DNA of 64,000 bases from Candidatus Omnitrophota bacterium (GTDB taxonomy: Bacteria; Omnitrophota; Gorgyraeia; B26-G9): positions 67,317 through 131,316 of the forward strand of contig JBDRPX010000015.1 in assembly GCA_043826565.1 (NCBI GenBank), in the 5' to 3' direction. The notes under the pieces were generated by a model, which did not search any database, was not told the DNA's origin, and was given only the letters and a program-made list of their open reading frames with translations. Made by a program: the position numbers and the translations under genes. Below are positions 6,279-59,070 of the stretch, one piece after another. Each line of letters opens with the position of its first letter. The stretch's first letter is position 1.

Positions 6279-7157
6279 ATGGAGCGACGTGGACTAGGAA
6301 AAGGATTGGAAGCCCTGATATCCCCGGAAGCGGTTATTTTCGAGGAAAGAACATCAGAAAACAGCATTGTTGTTCTTAATCCGGAAAAAATTCAGCCAAA
6401 CCGCTATCAGCCGCGATTCGAATTCAAGGAGGATAAACTAAAAGAACTTATGGATTCAATAAAGGAAAAAGGGCTGGTGCAGCCGGTTATCGTTAGACAA
6501 AATTCCGCGGATGAATATGAACTTATTGCCGGGGAGCGGCGGTTACGCGCGATAAAAGCATTGGGCCGTACAGAAATTCCGGCAGTAATAAAAAATGCAA
6601 CTGATTTAGAGATGCTGGAGTTCTCCTTAATTGAAAATATTCAGCGTGACGATTTAAATCCGATTGAAGAAGCAAAAGCTTACAGCACCATGATCAATGA
6701 TTTTAGTTTTACGCAGGAGCAGATAGCTGCCGCGGTAGGAAAAAACCGGGCGACAGTTGCCAATATGCTGCGGCTTTTGGCATTACCCGAAGCAATACAA
6801 AACTCGGTATTAAAAGAATTAATTACCCTGGGGCATGCGAAGGCAATTTTAAGCCTTCATGAGCAAGCTGACCAATTGGAATTAATGGATAAGATCATTA
6901 CGGAAGGCTATTCGGTTCGCGAAGCTGAACAATATGCTAGTTTAGATGTTGAATTTATCGAATCGGAACAGCAAACAAAAACCAAGCCGGAAAAAGATCA
7001 ATTTATTCGGGACTTAGAGGAGCAAGCCCAGAGACTATTGGGAACCAAGGTTAGTATTCGGCATGGGGCAAAGCGCGGCAAGCTTCAAATAGAATACTAT
7101 TCGCTGGATGATTTAAATAGAATTCTAAAGATAATGGGAAGAGAAGAAAGCTGCTGA
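6279..7157 (+). CDS. parB: Chromosome partitioning protein ParB/Spo0J
   Basis: GLGKGLEALI N-terminus, ParB box GERRLRA, HTH; start set to ATG 6279 (RBS AAAGGAGG 7 nt upstream) rather than GTG 6276. Confidence 0.9.
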   Translation: MERRGLGKGLEALISPEAVIFEERTSENSIVVLNPEKIQPNRYQPRFEFKEDKLKELMDSIKEKGLVQPVIVRQNSADEYELIAGERRLRAIKALGRTEIPAVIKNATDLEMLEFSLIENIQRDDLNPIEEAKAYSTMINDFSFTQEQIAAAVGKNRATVANMLRLLALPEAIQNSVLKELITLGHAKAILSLHEQADQLELMDKIITEGYSVREAEQYASLDVEFIESEQQTKTKPEKDQFIRDLEEQAQRLLGTKVSIRHGAKRGKLQIEYYSLDDLNRILKIMGREESC

Positions 7158-9878: not shown

Positions 9879-12703
9879 TACTTTCCGCAGCATTTTTTGT
9901 GTTTTTTACCGCTTCCACAGGGGCAGGGATCATTCCTGCCGACCTTTTCCTGGCTGCGGGTATAAGTTGTTGCTTTTTGTTCCCGGGAGTCCTGCGGCAG
10001 AGCATGGGGAGTTTGCCCTGGCTGGTTAAAACTGGTTGTCTCCGGGTGTGAATAAGAAACCGGAATACTATCAAAAACTCCGGCAGGTTCTTCACTGGCA
10101 ACGGTTTTAATTTTAAACAGGAATTCCAGAGTTTCTTCTTTTATCCGGGCGATCATCTCCGAGAAAAGGCTATATGCTTCATGCTGGTATTCTACCAGAG
10201 GGTCTTTTTGCCCAAAAGCCCGTAAGCCGATGCCTTCGCGCAACGTATCCATAGCATGCAGATTGTCTTTCCACTGGGTATCTAATATATGCAGGCATAT
10301 GGAACGTTCAAAATCACGGGACATATTCCGGCTCATGGAATTAAGTTTTACTTCATACGCGGTGATTAAAGTGTTGGCTAATGTTTCCTGGATATTCCCG
10401 TCCGCGGGCGCGGTAAACGAAATGCCGAATTTTGAATGGACCCAATCTTCCAGGCCGCTGATGTTCCAATCTCCGGGGTGTACTTTTGGCGGCAGATACT
10501 GCTCGGCCGCGTCTTCGACAATCTCATGGATCAACTCAATAATAAATTCCCGGGCATTGTCCTGCTCTAATATTTTTCGGCGCTGTTCATAAATAATTTC
10601 CCGCTGTTTGTTCATGACATTGTCATATTCAAGAAGCTGTTTGCGGATTTCAAAATTATGGCCTTCTACGCGTTTTTGGGCAATCTCAATGGAACGGGTG
10701 ATCATCAGATGCTCGATCGGCATATCTTCTTCCCATTGTACTAAATCCATAAACTTGGAAATCCTGTCCGAGGCAAATATCCGCATTAAATCATCTTGAA
10801 GCGATAGATAAAAACGGCTGGATCCGGGATCGCCCTGCCGTCCGGAACGGCCGCGCAGCTGATTGTCGATGCGGCGTGATTCATGACGTTCGGTGCCGAT
10901 AATATGCAGTCCGCCAAGAGCAATAACTTTTTCATGCTCATTGAGTGTCTCGTCTTTTACGCTTTGCAGAGCTTGCTCTTTTTGCTCTTTAGTGGCTAAT
11001 TGCGGATCAATGCCTTTTTTGCGCAGGAGTTCACTGGCAAAAAAATCCGCGTTTCCGCCAAGTAAAATATCGGTTCCCCGTCCGGCCATATTAGTGGCAA
11101 TAGTTACATTTCCGAATTTTCCGGATTGAGCAATAATCGTGGCTTCCTGTTCATGATATTTAGCATTAAGCACGCTGTGGGGGATACCTTTTTGTTTTAA
11201 TAGGCGGCCGAGAAGCTCTGATTTTTCTATAGAGATTGTTCCCACTAAAACCGGCCTTCCGACTTGATGCATTTGGCAGATTTCTTCAACAACAGCTTTA
11301 AACTTTTCTTTCTCGGTTTTATAAATAACATCCGGCTGATTATCCCGGGACAACGGCCGGTTTGTCGGGATCACGGTTACGTCAAGTTTATAGATATGCT
11401 GGAATTCCGCTTCTTCGGTTACCGCGGTTCCGGTCATGCCGGCAAGTTTATTATACATGCGAAAGTAATTCTGGAAGGTGATTGTCGCTAAAGTCTGATT
11501 TTCTCTTTCGATTTTTACCCCTTCTTTAGCCTCAACAGCCTGGTGCAATCCGTCGCTCCAGCGGCGTCCCGGCATCAGCCTTCCGGTAAAATCATCAACG
11601 ATAATTACTTTGCCTTCCTTTACTACATAATGAACATCGCGTTTGAAAAGCCGGGAATGAGCTTTTAAGGCCTGGTCGACATGGTGCTTGAGCTCCATTG
11701 TTTCTAAATCGCTGAGGCTGTCCACGCCGAGTATTTTCGCGACCCGAGCTTCGCCTTGCTCGGTAAGATAAGCGGCATGACTTTTTTCATCAACAATAAA
11801 ATCACCGGATTCCTCTTTGGTTTCCTCATTTTTTTCGCCTTCGGTAAGCTTGGGAATTATTCGGTCAATACTGTAATACTTGTCGGTGGAAGCTTCTGTT
11901 GGTCCGGAAATGATCAAAGGAGTTCGTGCTTCATCAATAAGGATACTGTCAACTTCATCAACAATGGCAAAGTTAAGTTCTCTCTGGACCATATCATCTT
12001 TATGCAGGACCATATTGTCCCGTAAATAATCAAAACCAAACTCATTATTGGTCCCGTAGGTAATATCGCTATGGTATGCCTGCCGGCGGGTGAGTGGTTT
12101 TAAGTGCGACATGCGTTCATCACGCGTGGAGTCATCAAGATATGCCGGGTCATATACAACAGAAGCCTCATGGGCAATAGAAGCGCACGTTAAGCCTAGA
12201 AAATGATATATCGGCCCCATCCATCCGCAGTCTCTTTGAGCCAGATAATCGTTTACGGTAATTAAGTGTACCCCTTTTCCGGTTAGCGCGTTAAGATAGA
12301 CCGCCAGAGTTGCCACCAGGGTTTTTCCTTCACCAGTGGTCATTTCCGCGATTTTCCCCTCATGAAGGATAATCCCGCCGAAAAGCTGTACGTCAAAATG
12401 CCGCATAGCTACAGTACGCTTGGACGCCTCCCGGCAAACAGCAAAAGCTTCCGGAAGGATCTCATCTAATGCGGCTTTTTCTATTTTTTTTATTTCTTTT
12501 TCCGGGGCATCTTCCTCAAGGTGCTCTTTGGTGTATTCGCTTATCCGGGCTTTAAATTCTCCGGTTTTATTTTTTAATTGCTCGTCGGAAAGGCCGGAGA
12601 TCTCTGCTTCCAGGGAATTTATTTTTTCAACTAAAGGGCTAAGCCGTTTAAGCTCTTTTTCGTTGTGTGATCCAAAGATCATGTTTTTTATGAATTTTAA
12701 CAT
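9878..12703 (-). CDS. secA: Preprotein translocase ATPase SecA
   Basis: 941 aa; DEAD motor, PPXD, C-terminal zinc finger [14 protein letters not shown]. Confidence 0.97.
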
Positions 12704-27751: not shown

Positions 27752-27784
27752 CCTGTAGGGACAGGTCTGTGACCTGTCCGAAAC
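27750..27784 (+). repeat. REP element (GTAGGG head + palindrome) between batA and batB
   Basis: aacctgtagggacaggtctgtgacctgtccgaaac; stem GGACAGGTC/GACCTGTCC. Confidence 0.7.
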
Positions 27785-27802: not shown

Positions 27803-28834
27803 ATGCGATTTGGGAATTTACAATTTTTATGGATGCTGTTACTTGTTCCGGCGGGTATTTTGTTTTTTTCCTGGGCCTTTAAATCTAAACGCCGGGCTTT
27901 AGAAAAATTCGCGCAAAATGACCGGCTGAAAGTTTTATTACGCCGGGTCAGTTTAAAAAAACAAAAATTAAAAGCTGTTTTTTTTATTTTGGGAATTTTG
28001 TTTGTAGTTCTTTCCTTGATTGAGCCGAAATGGGGATATCAATGGGAACAGGTAAATCGCCGCGGACTGGATATTGTTATTGCTTTGGATGTTTCCAAAA
28101 GCATGCTGGCCGAAGATATTAAGCCTAACCGGCTGGAAGCGGCAAAAAGAGAAATAAAAAGCCTGATCAATATTTTACAGGGGGACCGTGTCGGGATTGT
28201 GGCTTTTGCGGGGAGCTCGTTTTTGCATTGTCCGTTAACCCTTGATTACGGTACCGCGAAATTATTTGTCGATTATCTGGATATTAACGCGATCCCGTTC
28301 GGCGGCACAGATATCGGCGGAGCAATACGTCAGGCAGTGCGCGCTTTTGAAGGCCATGAGAAGAAACACCGGGTATTGATCCTGATTACCGACGGAGAAG
28401 ATCATCAGGAAGATGTTATGGACGCGGTGGAATTAGCCAAGCAGAATGGCGTGGTTATTTTCCCCATTGGTGTCGGCCGTCAGGAAGGCGCGCCGATCCC
28501 GGTGGTTGACGGACAGGGCCGCAGCGGATTTGTCAAAGATAGCGAAGGTAAAGTGGTTTTATCAAAACTTGATTCGGTCTTACTGCAAAAGATCGCGCTG
28601 ATCGCCGGCGGTAAAAAAGGAAGTATCGGCGCGGGAAGTTTTCCTCTGGAGGAGATTTATGAGCAGGAAGTTTCTAAGATGGAAAAGAAAGAACTGCAGT
28701 CTTCCCGGCAGAAGCGTTATGAGAATAGGTTCCAGTATCCGTTAATGATCGCCTTATTAATGTTTGTTGCCGAAGCAGTGCTAAGTGAAAGAAAAAATAA
28801 GGGTGTAGGGGCGGACCTCCGTGTCCGCCCGTGA
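27803..28834 (+). CDS. batB: vWA-domain protein BatB
   Basis: TM, vWA MIDAS DVSKSM; the last ~10 codons (GVGADLRVRP) are encoded by a REP element. Confidence 0.85.
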   Translation: MRFGNLQFLWMLLLVPAGILFFSWAFKSKRRALEKFAQNDRLKVLLRRVSLKKQKLKAVFFILGILFVVLSLIEPKWGYQWEQVNRRGLDIVIALDVSKSMLAEDIKPNRLEAAKREIKSLINILQGDRVGIVAFAGSSFLHCPLTLDYGTAKLFVDYLDINAIPFGGTDIGGAIRQAVRAFEGHEKKHRVLILITDGEDHQEDVMDAVELAKQNGVVIFPIGVGRQEGAPIPVVDGQGRSGFVKDSEGKVVLSKLDSVLLQKIALIAGGKKGSIGAGSFPLEEIYEQEVSKMEKKELQSSRQKRYENRFQYPLMIALLMFVAEAVLSERKNKGVGADLRVRP

Positions 28835-28839: not shown

Positions 28840-28874
28840 AACCTGTAGGGACAGGTTTGTAACCTGTCCGAAAT
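28840..28874 (+). repeat. REP element in the batB-batC intergenic region / batC 5'UTR
   Basis: aacctgtagggacaggtttgtaacctgtccgaaat. Confidence 0.7.
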
Positions 28875-33851: not shown

Positions 33852-34269
33852 TAAATATCCACGAAACAAAAATATTGATGTAACACATTCGTATTGTTTG
33901 ACTTACTGGTTGAGATGTTTTATTTTTATTAGAATTGACATCTAGTTAGCTGGTGGACGCGCGCAAATGGAGTTTACCCAGTAGGTGTTTATGGGTGGTA
34001 TGTACAATTAATGAAAGAATATAAAACCAGAAAATTAAACCGATTGAAAGAATATGATTATTCGCAAGCAGGATATTATTATGTAACGATATGCGTCTAT
34101 GTTCGTGAATGCCTGTTTGGAAATATAATTAATAATAATATGGAATTGAACAATGCCGGCGAAATGATGGGTAAAATATTGCAAAAATTGCCGGAATATT
34201 ATCCAAACATAGACATTGATCAACAGATTGTAATGCCAAATCATATTCATGCGATAATTATAATCAAAG

Positions 34270-34305
34270 AACCTGTAGGGGACGACCTCTGTGTCGTCCC
34301 GGGAC
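34270..34305 (+). repeat. REP element (forward) inside RAYT ORF
   Basis: aacctgtaggggacgacctctgtgtcgtcccgggac; stem GGGACGAC/GTCGTCCC. Confidence 0.7.
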
Positions 34306-34390
34306 AAAATCAAAAACATGATCAAACAATAAACCAAAATGATTTAACAGCCGAAGGACAGGTGTATGGTAACGGACAGACACAAGATAA

Positions 34391-34419
34391 AGGGCGGATA
34401 CGGAGATCCGCCCCTACAG
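34391..34419 (-). repeat. REP element (inverted orientation) inside RAYT ORF
   Basis: gggcggatacggagatccgcccctacagg is the reverse complement of cctgtaggggcggatctccgtatccgccc, near-identical to the REP at 28804. Confidence 0.7.
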
Positions 34420-34682
34420 GACGTTTATCATTGTCAAATATAATTCAACGATTTAAAATGATAACAACAAAACGTTATATTGATGGCGTAAAAAATTATC
34501 ATTGGCAAACATTTGATAAACATTTATGGCAACGTTCATTTTATGACCATATAATCCGCACAAATGATTCTTTAAACAATATGCGCGAATATATTGTTAA
34601 TAATCCCTCAACATGGGATAATGATGAACATAATATTAATAATTTTTTTATAGAGGACAATTATTGTAAAATAATATAAACC

Positions 34683-35150
34683 ATGAAATTTGAAATAAAT
34701 CAAATCGGCATAATTCATTCACCCTACAAAACCAAAGATGAATGCCCGATCCAGGGTTCAGTTAAGCCCGAAGGAAGAGGGCAAATTGAAATATTCCCGG
34801 AATACGAACCAGCCTTAGAAACAATCGAAACATTTTCGCATATTATCCTGTTTTACATTTTTGACCAGGCCGGAGAAATAAAATTATCCCGGCCGACATT
34901 CTTAGATGATGTTCCCCACGGAGTATTCGCTTCCCGTCATCCCTGCCGGCCGAATAGTATCGGCATGTCTATTGTCAAATTAGAAAAAAGAAATAAAAAT
35001 ATTCTGGAAGTAAGCGAAATAGATGTTTTGGATAATACTCCGCTTATTGATATAAAACCGTATCTGCCTAAATTTGATCATCGGGAAAATGCCAATAACG
35101 GCTGGGCCGAAACAAAAGAATTACGCGAAAAACCAAAGGGCCGGGAATGA
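34683..35150 (+). CDS. trmO: tRNA (t6A37) methyltransferase TrmO/TsaA (YaeB family)
   Basis: GIIHSPYKTK...GVFASRHPCRPNSIGMSIVKL...LDNTPLIDIKPY matches the TsaA-like fold signature. Confidence 0.85.
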   Translation: MKFEINQIGIIHSPYKTKDECPIQGSVKPEGRGQIEIFPEYEPALETIETFSHIILFYIFDQAGEIKLSRPTFLDDVPHGVFASRHPCRPNSIGMSIVKLEKRNKNILEVSEIDVLDNTPLIDIKPYLPKFDHRENANNGWAETKELREKPKGRE

Positions 35151-35190: not shown

Positions 35191-35493
35191 ATGAAAAAAA
35201 ACTGCTGGGAATTCAAGAAATGCGGAAGAGAACCGGGAGGAGAAAATGCCGGTAAGCTGGGGGTTTGTCCGGCGGCTGTTTGCCTGAAAGCAAATAAAAT
35301 TCATAACGGGAAAAATGGGGGCAGATGCTGTTGGTCAATAGTGGGAACACTCTGCGGAGGGAAAATTCAAGGCACGTTTGTGAAAAAATACCAAAGCTGC
35401 ATGGAATGCGTTTTTTTTGCATTAGTTACTCAGGAAGAAGATGATATATTAACAAGTTTAGAAATAAATAAAAAAATTAAAAACACAGAATAA
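35191..35493 (+). CDS. Small Cys/Trp-rich protein (two-CW-domain-like)
   Basis: 100 aa; MKKNCWEFKKCGREPGG...GVCPA...GGRCCWSIVGTLCGG...SCMEC; 11 Cys; remembered similarity to 'two-CW domain' proteins, not verified. Confidence 0.5.
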   Translation: MKKNCWEFKKCGREPGGENAGKLGVCPAAVCLKANKIHNGKNGGRCCWSIVGTLCGGKIQGTFVKKYQSCMECVFFALVTQEEDDILTSLEINKKIKNTE

Positions 35494-59042: not shown

Positions 59043-59070
59043 CGTAGGGGCGCCGCTTGTCTGCGCCCGA
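59043..59070 (+). repeat. REP-like element (GTAGGGG head, stem GGGCGC/GCGCCC) downstream of the giant gene
   Basis: cgtaggggcgccgcttgtctgcgcccga. Confidence 0.55.

Follow-up and report, generated by a model that had tools for sequence, protein, structure and literature searches.

How does a transposase gene come to carry the DNA substrate of its own product within its coding sequence, and does the gene suffer from it? The question is raised by a gene for a REP-associated tyrosine transposase (RAYT, also TnpA_REP) in a 64,000-nucleotide stretch of the Candidatus Omnitrophota contig JBDRPX010000015.1. We call this stretch the window, and all positions refer to it unless another locus is named. 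Between two motifs of the enzyme, the open reading frame (ORF) contains two repetitive extragenic palindromes (REPs) in inverted orientation. A preliminary description regarded this arrangement as unusual and as possibly the result of a recent insertion that inactivates or regulates the enzyme. Our comparison shows an intact RAYT, which we assign to TnpA_REP subclass 2.4, or RAYT Group 4. The two internal units are true REPs of the local family, and occupancy of the site is ancient and family-wide, with stems that turn over in step with the REP population of each genome. We assign a probability of about 0.6 to the reading that the internal units are self-renewing passenger REPs in a permissive loop of their own RAYT gene.

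The protein encoded by the ORF is 100% identical to P0001, a protein annotated as 'transposase' in a metagenome-assembled genome of Candidatus Omnitrophota. It matches the Pfam family Y1_Tnp (PF01797) with a score of 35.5 bits (cut-off 23; E = 1.2e-8). The match covers the C-terminal half alone, because the insert splits the domain. In alignment A1, which contains 44 homologues, H78 and H80 of the HUH motif are near-invariant and Y194 and N198 are invariant. The counterpart of the HUH motif in E. coli TnpA_REP (4ER8) is PEHMH with the metal ligands H59/H61, and the counterparts of Y194 and N198 are the catalytic Y115 and the metal ligand N119 (Messing et al. 2012, PMC3479197). The assignment as a RAYT-type HUH/Y1 enzyme, already proposed in the preliminary description, is thereby supported, while one of its motifs has to be reassigned. 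WQRSFYDHIIR had been taken as the tyrosine motif. Its residues W173, Q174, Y178, D179, H180 and R183 align with the GTAG-binding set of the E. coli enzyme given in Fig. S11 of PMC6006769 (W94, Q95, W99, E100, H101 and R104), with the conservative replacements of W by Y and E by D; the catalytic tyrosine is Y194 in REYIVNNP. HUH, Y194, N198 and the GTAG-binding motif are jointly present, and the gene shows no sign of inactivation.

The AlphaFold model calculated with alignment A1 (predicted template modelling score, pTM, 0.74) predicts an HUH/Y1 fold with a four-stranded sheet and flanking helices. The core has predicted local distance difference test (pLDDT) values of 94–98, with the HUH motif on strand 78–85, and helix αC spans residues 141–163. 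Foldseek matches the model to the TnpA proteins of ISDra2, IS608 and IS200 and to 4ER8 with E ~2e-5 to 1e-4. Between strand 78–85 and helix αC, residues ~88–137 have pLDDT values of 43–47 and no secondary structure. In frame, the internal REPs encode ~49 amino acids (V89–G137) that lie in this stretch, which is predicted to be disordered and is outside the catalytic core. Alignment A1 and the model agree with the earlier placement of the insertion in a loop between the motifs. The low-complexity segment is indeed in frame, with a length of ~49 amino acids.

Each internal unit consists of a GTAG foot that is directly followed by a perfect, G+C-rich 8-bp stem with a 6-nt loop. Both units are in frame, and their feet point outward. 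As single-stranded DNA, the forward unit folds with -8.6 kcal/mol (z -2.84) and the reverse unit with -9.2 kcal/mol (z -4.52). Their GC content is ~50–55%, compared to ~30% in the surrounding gene. The A-rich spacer between the units is 91 nt long and not 85 nt as first described. It is not palindromic, and the arms of the inverted pair have different stems and are 76% complementary. A 157-nt segment containing the pair folds with -23.5 kcal/mol (z -3.98); feet and stems pair and the spacer stays unpaired. We considered the label REPIN for this doublet and dropped it, since pairing is limited to feet and stems. Just 5' of the reverse unit, at ~34352–34391, the spacer contains two direct GGACAG half-arms (GGACAGGT... 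and GGACAGAC...). Similar sequence forms the distal arm of the reverse unit in the homologous loci L081 and L082, and the half-arms are also similar to the second REP class found in the window (27755 and 28845). They are probably remnants of earlier reverse units.

Table 1. Coordinates of the RAYT gene, its motifs, its internal REP units and the extragenic REP units in the window.
Feature	Position	Strand	Details
RAYT / TnpA_REP gene, intact, 222 aa	34011..34679	+	ORF list, Pfam, NCBIfam, AlphaFold, Foldseek
HUH motif H78-I79-H80, on strand of residues 78-85	34242..34250	+	sequence, alignments
Forward REP, GTAG foot, 8-bp stem GGGACGAC/GTCGTCCC, loop CTCTGT	34275..34300	+	encodes V89-P97 VGDDLCVVP
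A-rich spacer between REP units	34301..34391 (91 nt)	+	encodes G98-K127; no predicted structure
Reverse REP, GTAG GGGCGGAT ctccgt ATCCGCCC (minus strand)	34392..34417	-	encodes G128-T136 GRIRRSAPT
WQRSFYDHIIR, W173-R183, predicted GTAG-guide binding motif, not catalytic Tyr motif	34527..34559	+	aligns to IWQPRFWEHAIR of 4ER8
Catalytic Y194 and metal ligand N198 (Y-I-V-N-N, within REYIVNNP), last helix	34590..34604	+	alignment
Extragenic REP, second stem class, 4 nt past stop of BatA-like ORF	27755..27779	+	fold -9.3 kcal/mol, z -4.43
Extragenic REP, class of reverse internal unit, GTAGGGGCGGACctccgtGTCCGCCC	28805..28830	+	fold -9.9 kcal/mol, z -3.99
Extragenic REP, second stem class, GTAGGGACAGGTttgtaACCTGTCC, direct tandem with 28805 unit	28845..28869	+	fold -9.0 kcal/mol, z -4.74
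Weaker REP-like unit, GTAG GGGCGC ... GCGCCC, 6-bp stem	59044..59069	+	fold z -1.5; family membership uncertain

The internal units belong to a REP family that is dispersed in the window. A scan of both strands of the 64 kb for a foot plus hairpin finds seven units, two of which lie within the RAYT ORF. By itself, the heptamer GTAGGGG shows no enrichment in the window, where 5 copies compare to 4.1 expected. The signal is therefore the foot plus the hairpin, and our scans used this combination. The reverse internal unit and the unit at 28805, 5.6 kb away, agree at 24 of 26 nt, and the two mismatches form one compensatory pair, which confirms the near-match noted before. Both internal units share GTAG followed by GGG...CCC with the 28805 unit. 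The inverted pair of the RAYT gene is of the same family as the extragenic copies, and the existence of such further copies agrees with the earlier identification as REPs. Membership of the weak unit at 59044 is uncertain. The units at 27755, 28805, 28845 and 59044 each lie at the 3' end of an ORF. The 28805 unit overlaps the final codons of a BatB-like ORF with a Pfam VWA domain (27803–28834) and encodes its tail 'GVGADLRVRP*'; the true end of this ORF may lie upstream of the REP-encoded tail. A second copy of the internal doublet is not present in the window, where the extragenic units are singles or a direct tandem.

The arrangement found in the window is the norm among related genes. We compared 80 homologous loci from GTDB species genomes (numbered with the prefix L), which together with the window gene give 81 genes. 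The more than 15 phyla and other taxa sampled include Bacteroidota, Cyanobacteria, Chloroflexota, Nitrospirota, Latescibacterota, Thermodesulfobacteriota, Planctomycetota, Saccharibacteria and Gammaproteobacteria, and the relatives retrieved with the same features include genes of Nostoc, Anabaena, Bacteroidota and Chloroflexota. At least one foot-plus-hairpin unit lies between HUH and WQR in 68 of the 81 genes, across more than 15 phyla; 13 genes have none and 24 have just one. The unit density is 6.40 per kb in this interval, 0.62 in the rest of the ORF and 0.265 in the flanks (~1.16 Mb). This 24-fold enrichment over the flanks, together with the presence of two of the seven units of the window in one ORF, is far beyond chance. 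The commonest layout is that of the window, with a forward unit shortly past the HUH strand, most often 30 nt past the Pro codon of PNH, and a reverse unit that precedes the next helix by a short distance (modal position 93 nt 5' of WQR). REPs inside the cognate transposase gene can thus no longer be called unusual, all the more as the sections of PMC6006769 on subclass 2.4 already describe them. The reading frame is open across the insert region in all 81 genes.

Inside genes the order of the units is biased. Adjacent intragenic pairs have their feet outward in 30 cases and inward or in tandem in 10, compared to 19 and 61 for extragenic pairs (Fisher p = 1e-7). Twelve further intragenic cases are single 'double-foot' palindromes, such as those in L020, L053 and L067. 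Two genes of a divergent clade with the motifs WQERYHDH and WQSRYHDH, L052 (~6298–6362) and L064 (~10261–10327), have the internal pair reversed with the feet inward. The HUH-to-WQR distance is 97 amino acids in the window protein and 46–121 among the homologues. Its median increases from 60 amino acids in genes without a unit to 68.5 with one and 84.5 with at least two units, and the shortest REP-free linkers measure 46–53 amino acids. A native region would be expected to keep its length in REP-free homologues, as the preliminary description had reasoned; their short linkers agree with an insertion.

What is conserved at this site is the DNA and not the peptide. In alignment A1, 'VGAxxxxxP ... 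GxxxGxAPT' occurs at one shared place in nearly all proteins, and the underlying units are read in differing frames across genes. For the reverse foot, 30 genes use the reading xCT-ACx (…APT), 21 use CTA-Cxx (…PLQ/PLH/PLR) and 1 uses xxC-TAC. For the forward foot, 59 genes use GTA-GGG and 8 use xGT-AGG, and the frame that would place TAG in frame occurs once, with a GTGG foot. When sites are picked by their foot alone, a perfect stem of at least 7 bp follows in 55 of 79 cases for forward feet and in 44 of 77 for reverse feet, compared to 143 of 2644 sites in the flanks. Within the class of 8-bp stems and 6-nt loops, the base frequencies of paired positions mirror each other, such as A21/G18/C2 opposite T21/C18/G2. 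In the loop, the pattern C[CT]N[TC]GT is kept, and both window units conform to it. The units also match the REPs of their own surroundings. Among the 38 loci that have both intragenic and extragenic units, the first 14 nt of an intragenic unit are identical to an extragenic unit within ±10 kb in 24 loci, compared to 2.7% between loci. In L002, L004, L007 and L012, identical heterodimeric doublets are also found outside the gene. The dinucleotide CT, at which E. coli TnpA_REP cleaves, is not conserved 5' of the feet in the 81 genes, so that no argument for precise excision can be built on it; the two upstream bases are pyrimidine-rich, and in the window CCT precedes GTAG.

The age of the site can be judged from L081–L083, the three closest of the homologues compared at the DNA level, which share 58–60% identity. 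They lie in unrelated gene neighbourhoods and provide no empty orthologous site. The forward foot starts at an offset of 264 nt in the window gene, in L081 and in L083, and at 261 nt in L082. The reverse foot adjoins the same conserved flank 'TTATCATT' in all four. The stems differ by compensated changes, as in GGGGACGAC/GTCGTCCC of the window versus GGGGCCGAC/GTCGGCCC of L082, between which the loop is identical. Fixed foot codons, conserved flanks and compensated stems together point to a site that has long been occupied by changing occupants. A close relative free of REPs is not present in the databases searched; the REP-free genes are all distant, for example those of L039 (Anabaena), L077 and L078.

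The reading that we prefer accounts for these observations as follows. The enzyme would act on REP hairpins in single-stranded DNA, and a REP may once have landed in the sole permissive loop of the enzyme's own gene. Since the enzyme needs REPs as substrate, it would remodel, duplicate or replace them wherever they are present, its own gene included. Selection on the enzyme would purge frame shifts, an in-frame TAG from the foot and any disruption of the core. The internal REPs would then be tolerated passengers, neither a disabling insertion nor necessarily a dedicated regulatory device. In several homologues (L003, L004, L006, L011, L017, L035, L041 and L046), the loop contains tandem arrays of peptides derived from half a REP, for example GPCAVPK x4, GQPREINN x3, GQPHPI x4, QQPLGE x5 and GEHDKNTT x4, and in every case the array lies inward of a full unit. 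These arrays suggest repeated slippage or cleavage and rejoining at the hairpins, which points in the same direction as remodelling and duplication.

Several points weigh against this reading. Both the activity of the enzyme and its action on the internal REPs are what we infer. A purely passive role fits poorly with the strong preference for outward feet inside genes, and equally poorly with the maintenance of the site in many phyla despite the deletion bias of bacteria. The RAYT gene of the window is not flanked by REPs: no foot-plus-hairpin unit lies in 33852–34010, and the next gene already begins at 34683. The forward stem GGGACGAC occurs just this once in the 64 kb. The tblastn ranking by which the 80 loci were obtained favours intact genes, which makes the absence of frameshifted alleles weaker evidence. 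The assignment to subclass 2.4 was made by shared features and not with the profiles of its authors. Finally, the NCBIfam model REP_Tyr_transpos (NF047646) scores 55.7 bits in two stretches, under its cut-off of 80 bits. It is still the top NCBIfam match of the protein, followed by transpos_IS200 with 25.4 bits.

The same order bias leans toward a selected, functional internal doublet, which we regard as the strongest competitor, tentative and on balance unlikely. In one version, the doublet is a linked seed or master copy that ensures joint inheritance or transfer of transposase and substrate. In the other, it is an autoregulatory site, either through hairpins in single-stranded DNA that the enzyme binds or cleaves, or through mRNA hairpins that limit translation or stability. 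Occupation of the site in 68 of 81 genes with near-perfect stems, persistence against deletion bias and the feet-outward preference all favour such a function. Also in favour are the frequent identity of intragenic and nearby extragenic units, the extragenic copies of whole doublets in four loci, the unrelated neighbourhoods of the closest homologues and the phylogenetic scatter of subclass 2.4, which is described in PMC6006769 and is consistent with horizontal transfer. However, the 13 genes without units and the 24 with one indicate that the doublet is dispensable, and identity with extragenic units would be expected just as much under a 'sink' model. The window has its extragenic REPs as singles or direct tandems and not as copies of the internal doublet, and L052 and L064 keep the opposite order. 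The narrower proposal that the feet-outward doublet is a selected DNA-level component, whether as a REP-family seed travelling with the gene in vertical or horizontal transfer or as a self-recognition site by which the enzyme senses or limits its own gene, is a shade more doubtful still. If true, it would explain why the loop is kept filled by perfect, locally matching hairpins, in any frame, in more than 15 phyla. We found no functional study of intragenic REPs in the literature after 2018.

It is very improbable that a REP pair entered a clean RAYT gene recently by self-targeting, as raised in the preliminary description, whether this would inactivate the gene or newly regulate it. In favour of it, the units are GC-rich within an AT-rich gene, and the half-arm remnants in the spacer suggest turnover. 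As the reverse unit is near-identical to the copy 5.6 kb away, the present units could be young replacements. But the feet sit at the same codons in L081–L083, which share just 58–60% identity, the arrangement is the family norm, and REP-free genes occur solely among distant homologues. With frame, catalytic residues and fold all intact in the window gene and the frame open in all 81 genes, an insertion that is first-time or inactivating is contradicted by the data.

A native peptide motif VGA...APT with a role in the enzyme, of which the palindromic DNA would be a by-product or the origin of the REPs, is the least credible alternative: VGA and xAPT are the most frequent translations and T136 is near-invariant in A1, but the reading is contradicted by frame usage, since one DNA motif takes two or three reading frames (APT, PLQ/PLH/PLR, PY) across genes. 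In addition, stems vary with compensation while the peptide changes freely, the region has pLDDT values below 50, 13 genes lack it and identical units occur outside genes.

Further features were observed around the RAYT gene and its homologues. A gene for a TrmO-like tRNA methyltransferase (34683–35150; Pfam TrmO_N, 7.6e-39) begins 3 nt past the RAYT stop codon, and given this gap the RAYT gene may be co-transcribed with this housekeeping gene. Two genes 3' of the RAYT gene, a cysteine-rich ORF of 100 amino acids (35191–35493, plus strand; CWEFKKCGRE...CPAAVC...CCWS...CGG...CMEC) has no match in Pfam. Long REP arrays accompany two of the homologous genes: upstream of the RAYT gene of L003 (9487–9966), eight identical REPs are arranged in direct tandem with a period of mostly 37 nt, and downstream of that of L005 (10590–10974), six REPs follow a period of mostly 62 nt, with one inverted unit closing the array. 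The homologue P0095, a protein of 318 amino acids with 40% identity over 91% of the query, has precomputed Pfam matches to PF02021, PF01939 and PF08378 and not to Y1_Tnp, which may reflect a fusion or an error in gene calling.

For annotation, these results mean that the window gene should be listed as an intact subclass 2.4 / Group 4 RAYT and not as a disrupted transposase, and that the low-complexity middle of its protein is REP DNA read in frame. In predicted proteins, VGAxxxxxP, GxxxGxAPT and GEHxGSPLQ are signatures of translated REPs, of which the BatB-like tail at 28805 is an example, and such peptides can mislead domain searches and the calling of gene ends. By embedding the DNA substrate of the transposase in the transposase gene, the subclass offers a natural system for the co-evolution of REPs and RAYTs, and it is suited to asking whether REPs move between genomes inside the gene.

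In-frame REPs are known from other genes. Di Nocera et al. (2013, PMC3733652) describe GTAG-tagged palindromes, often as dimers, in frame within coding sequences, where they add 20–30 amino acids and are presumed to be tolerated in loops. Those REPs are scattered and lineage-specific and lie in genes such as uvrA and recB, whereas the units described here are carried by the cognate transposase gene, at a site that is filled across the family. REPINs (Bertels & Rainey 2011, PMC3116915) likewise consist of an inverted REP pair with a short spacer, and some of the homologous loci repeat their doublet extragenically. Unlike the intragenic doublet of the window, they are extragenic, and their definition was made for Group 2 and 3 RAYTs.

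A further related system is E. coli TnpA_REP / RayT (YafM; 4ER8, PMC3479197). It shares with the window protein the HUH/Y1 fold, the HUH motif, a catalytic tyrosine followed by asparagine four residues on, the GTAG-binding motif W-Q...[WY]-[ED]-H..R and cognate REPs with a 5' GTAG foot. The two proteins are ~17% identical. In the E. coli enzyme the β3-αC loop is short, a C-terminal extension (E161) is inhibitory, and H123 serves as a ligand where the window protein has the invariant W202. The stems of the E. coli REPs are bulged, and these REPs form bacterial interspersed mosaic elements (BIMEs) and flank the gene, with none lying inside it.

The closest known system is subclass 2.4 of Quentin et al. 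(2018, BMC Genomics 19:475, PMC6006769), which corresponds to RAYT Group 4 of Bertels et al. (2017, PMC5581495). In its treatment of this subclass, that paper gives intragenic REPs as the hallmark, regards the units as insertions, and models the insert, whose length varies through short repeats, as a peripheral extension. The REPs are characterised there by a GT[AG]G foot with three G-C pairs at the stem base or by a 'double foot'. The subclass is given as abundant in Cyanobacteria and Bacteroidota and scattered elsewhere, among the most phylogenetically scattered of all subclasses. As far as these descriptions go, the window gene has in common with it the variable insertion between β3 (HUH) and αC, in-frame REPs within the tnpA_REP coding sequence, the GT[AG]G foot, three basal G-C pairs, short repeats in the insert and the lack of a conserved C-terminal extension. 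It shows each subclass 2.4 feature that we tested, and falls short on two looser marks of RAYTs, the NCBIfam cut-off and flanking REPs, the latter setting it apart from the published members together with its Candidatus Omnitrophota host, which the sections on the subclass do not name. The same sections contain no report of feet-outward order, of multiple frames, of fixed foot positions or of a match to nearby extragenic units. The intragenic layout is thus already published as the hallmark of subclass 2.4, to which the window gene adds a member from Omnitrophota. Beyond that, the order bias, the frame usage, the fixed feet with compensated stems and the match to local extragenic REPs are added here, and they sharpen the question of internal REP function for the whole subclass.

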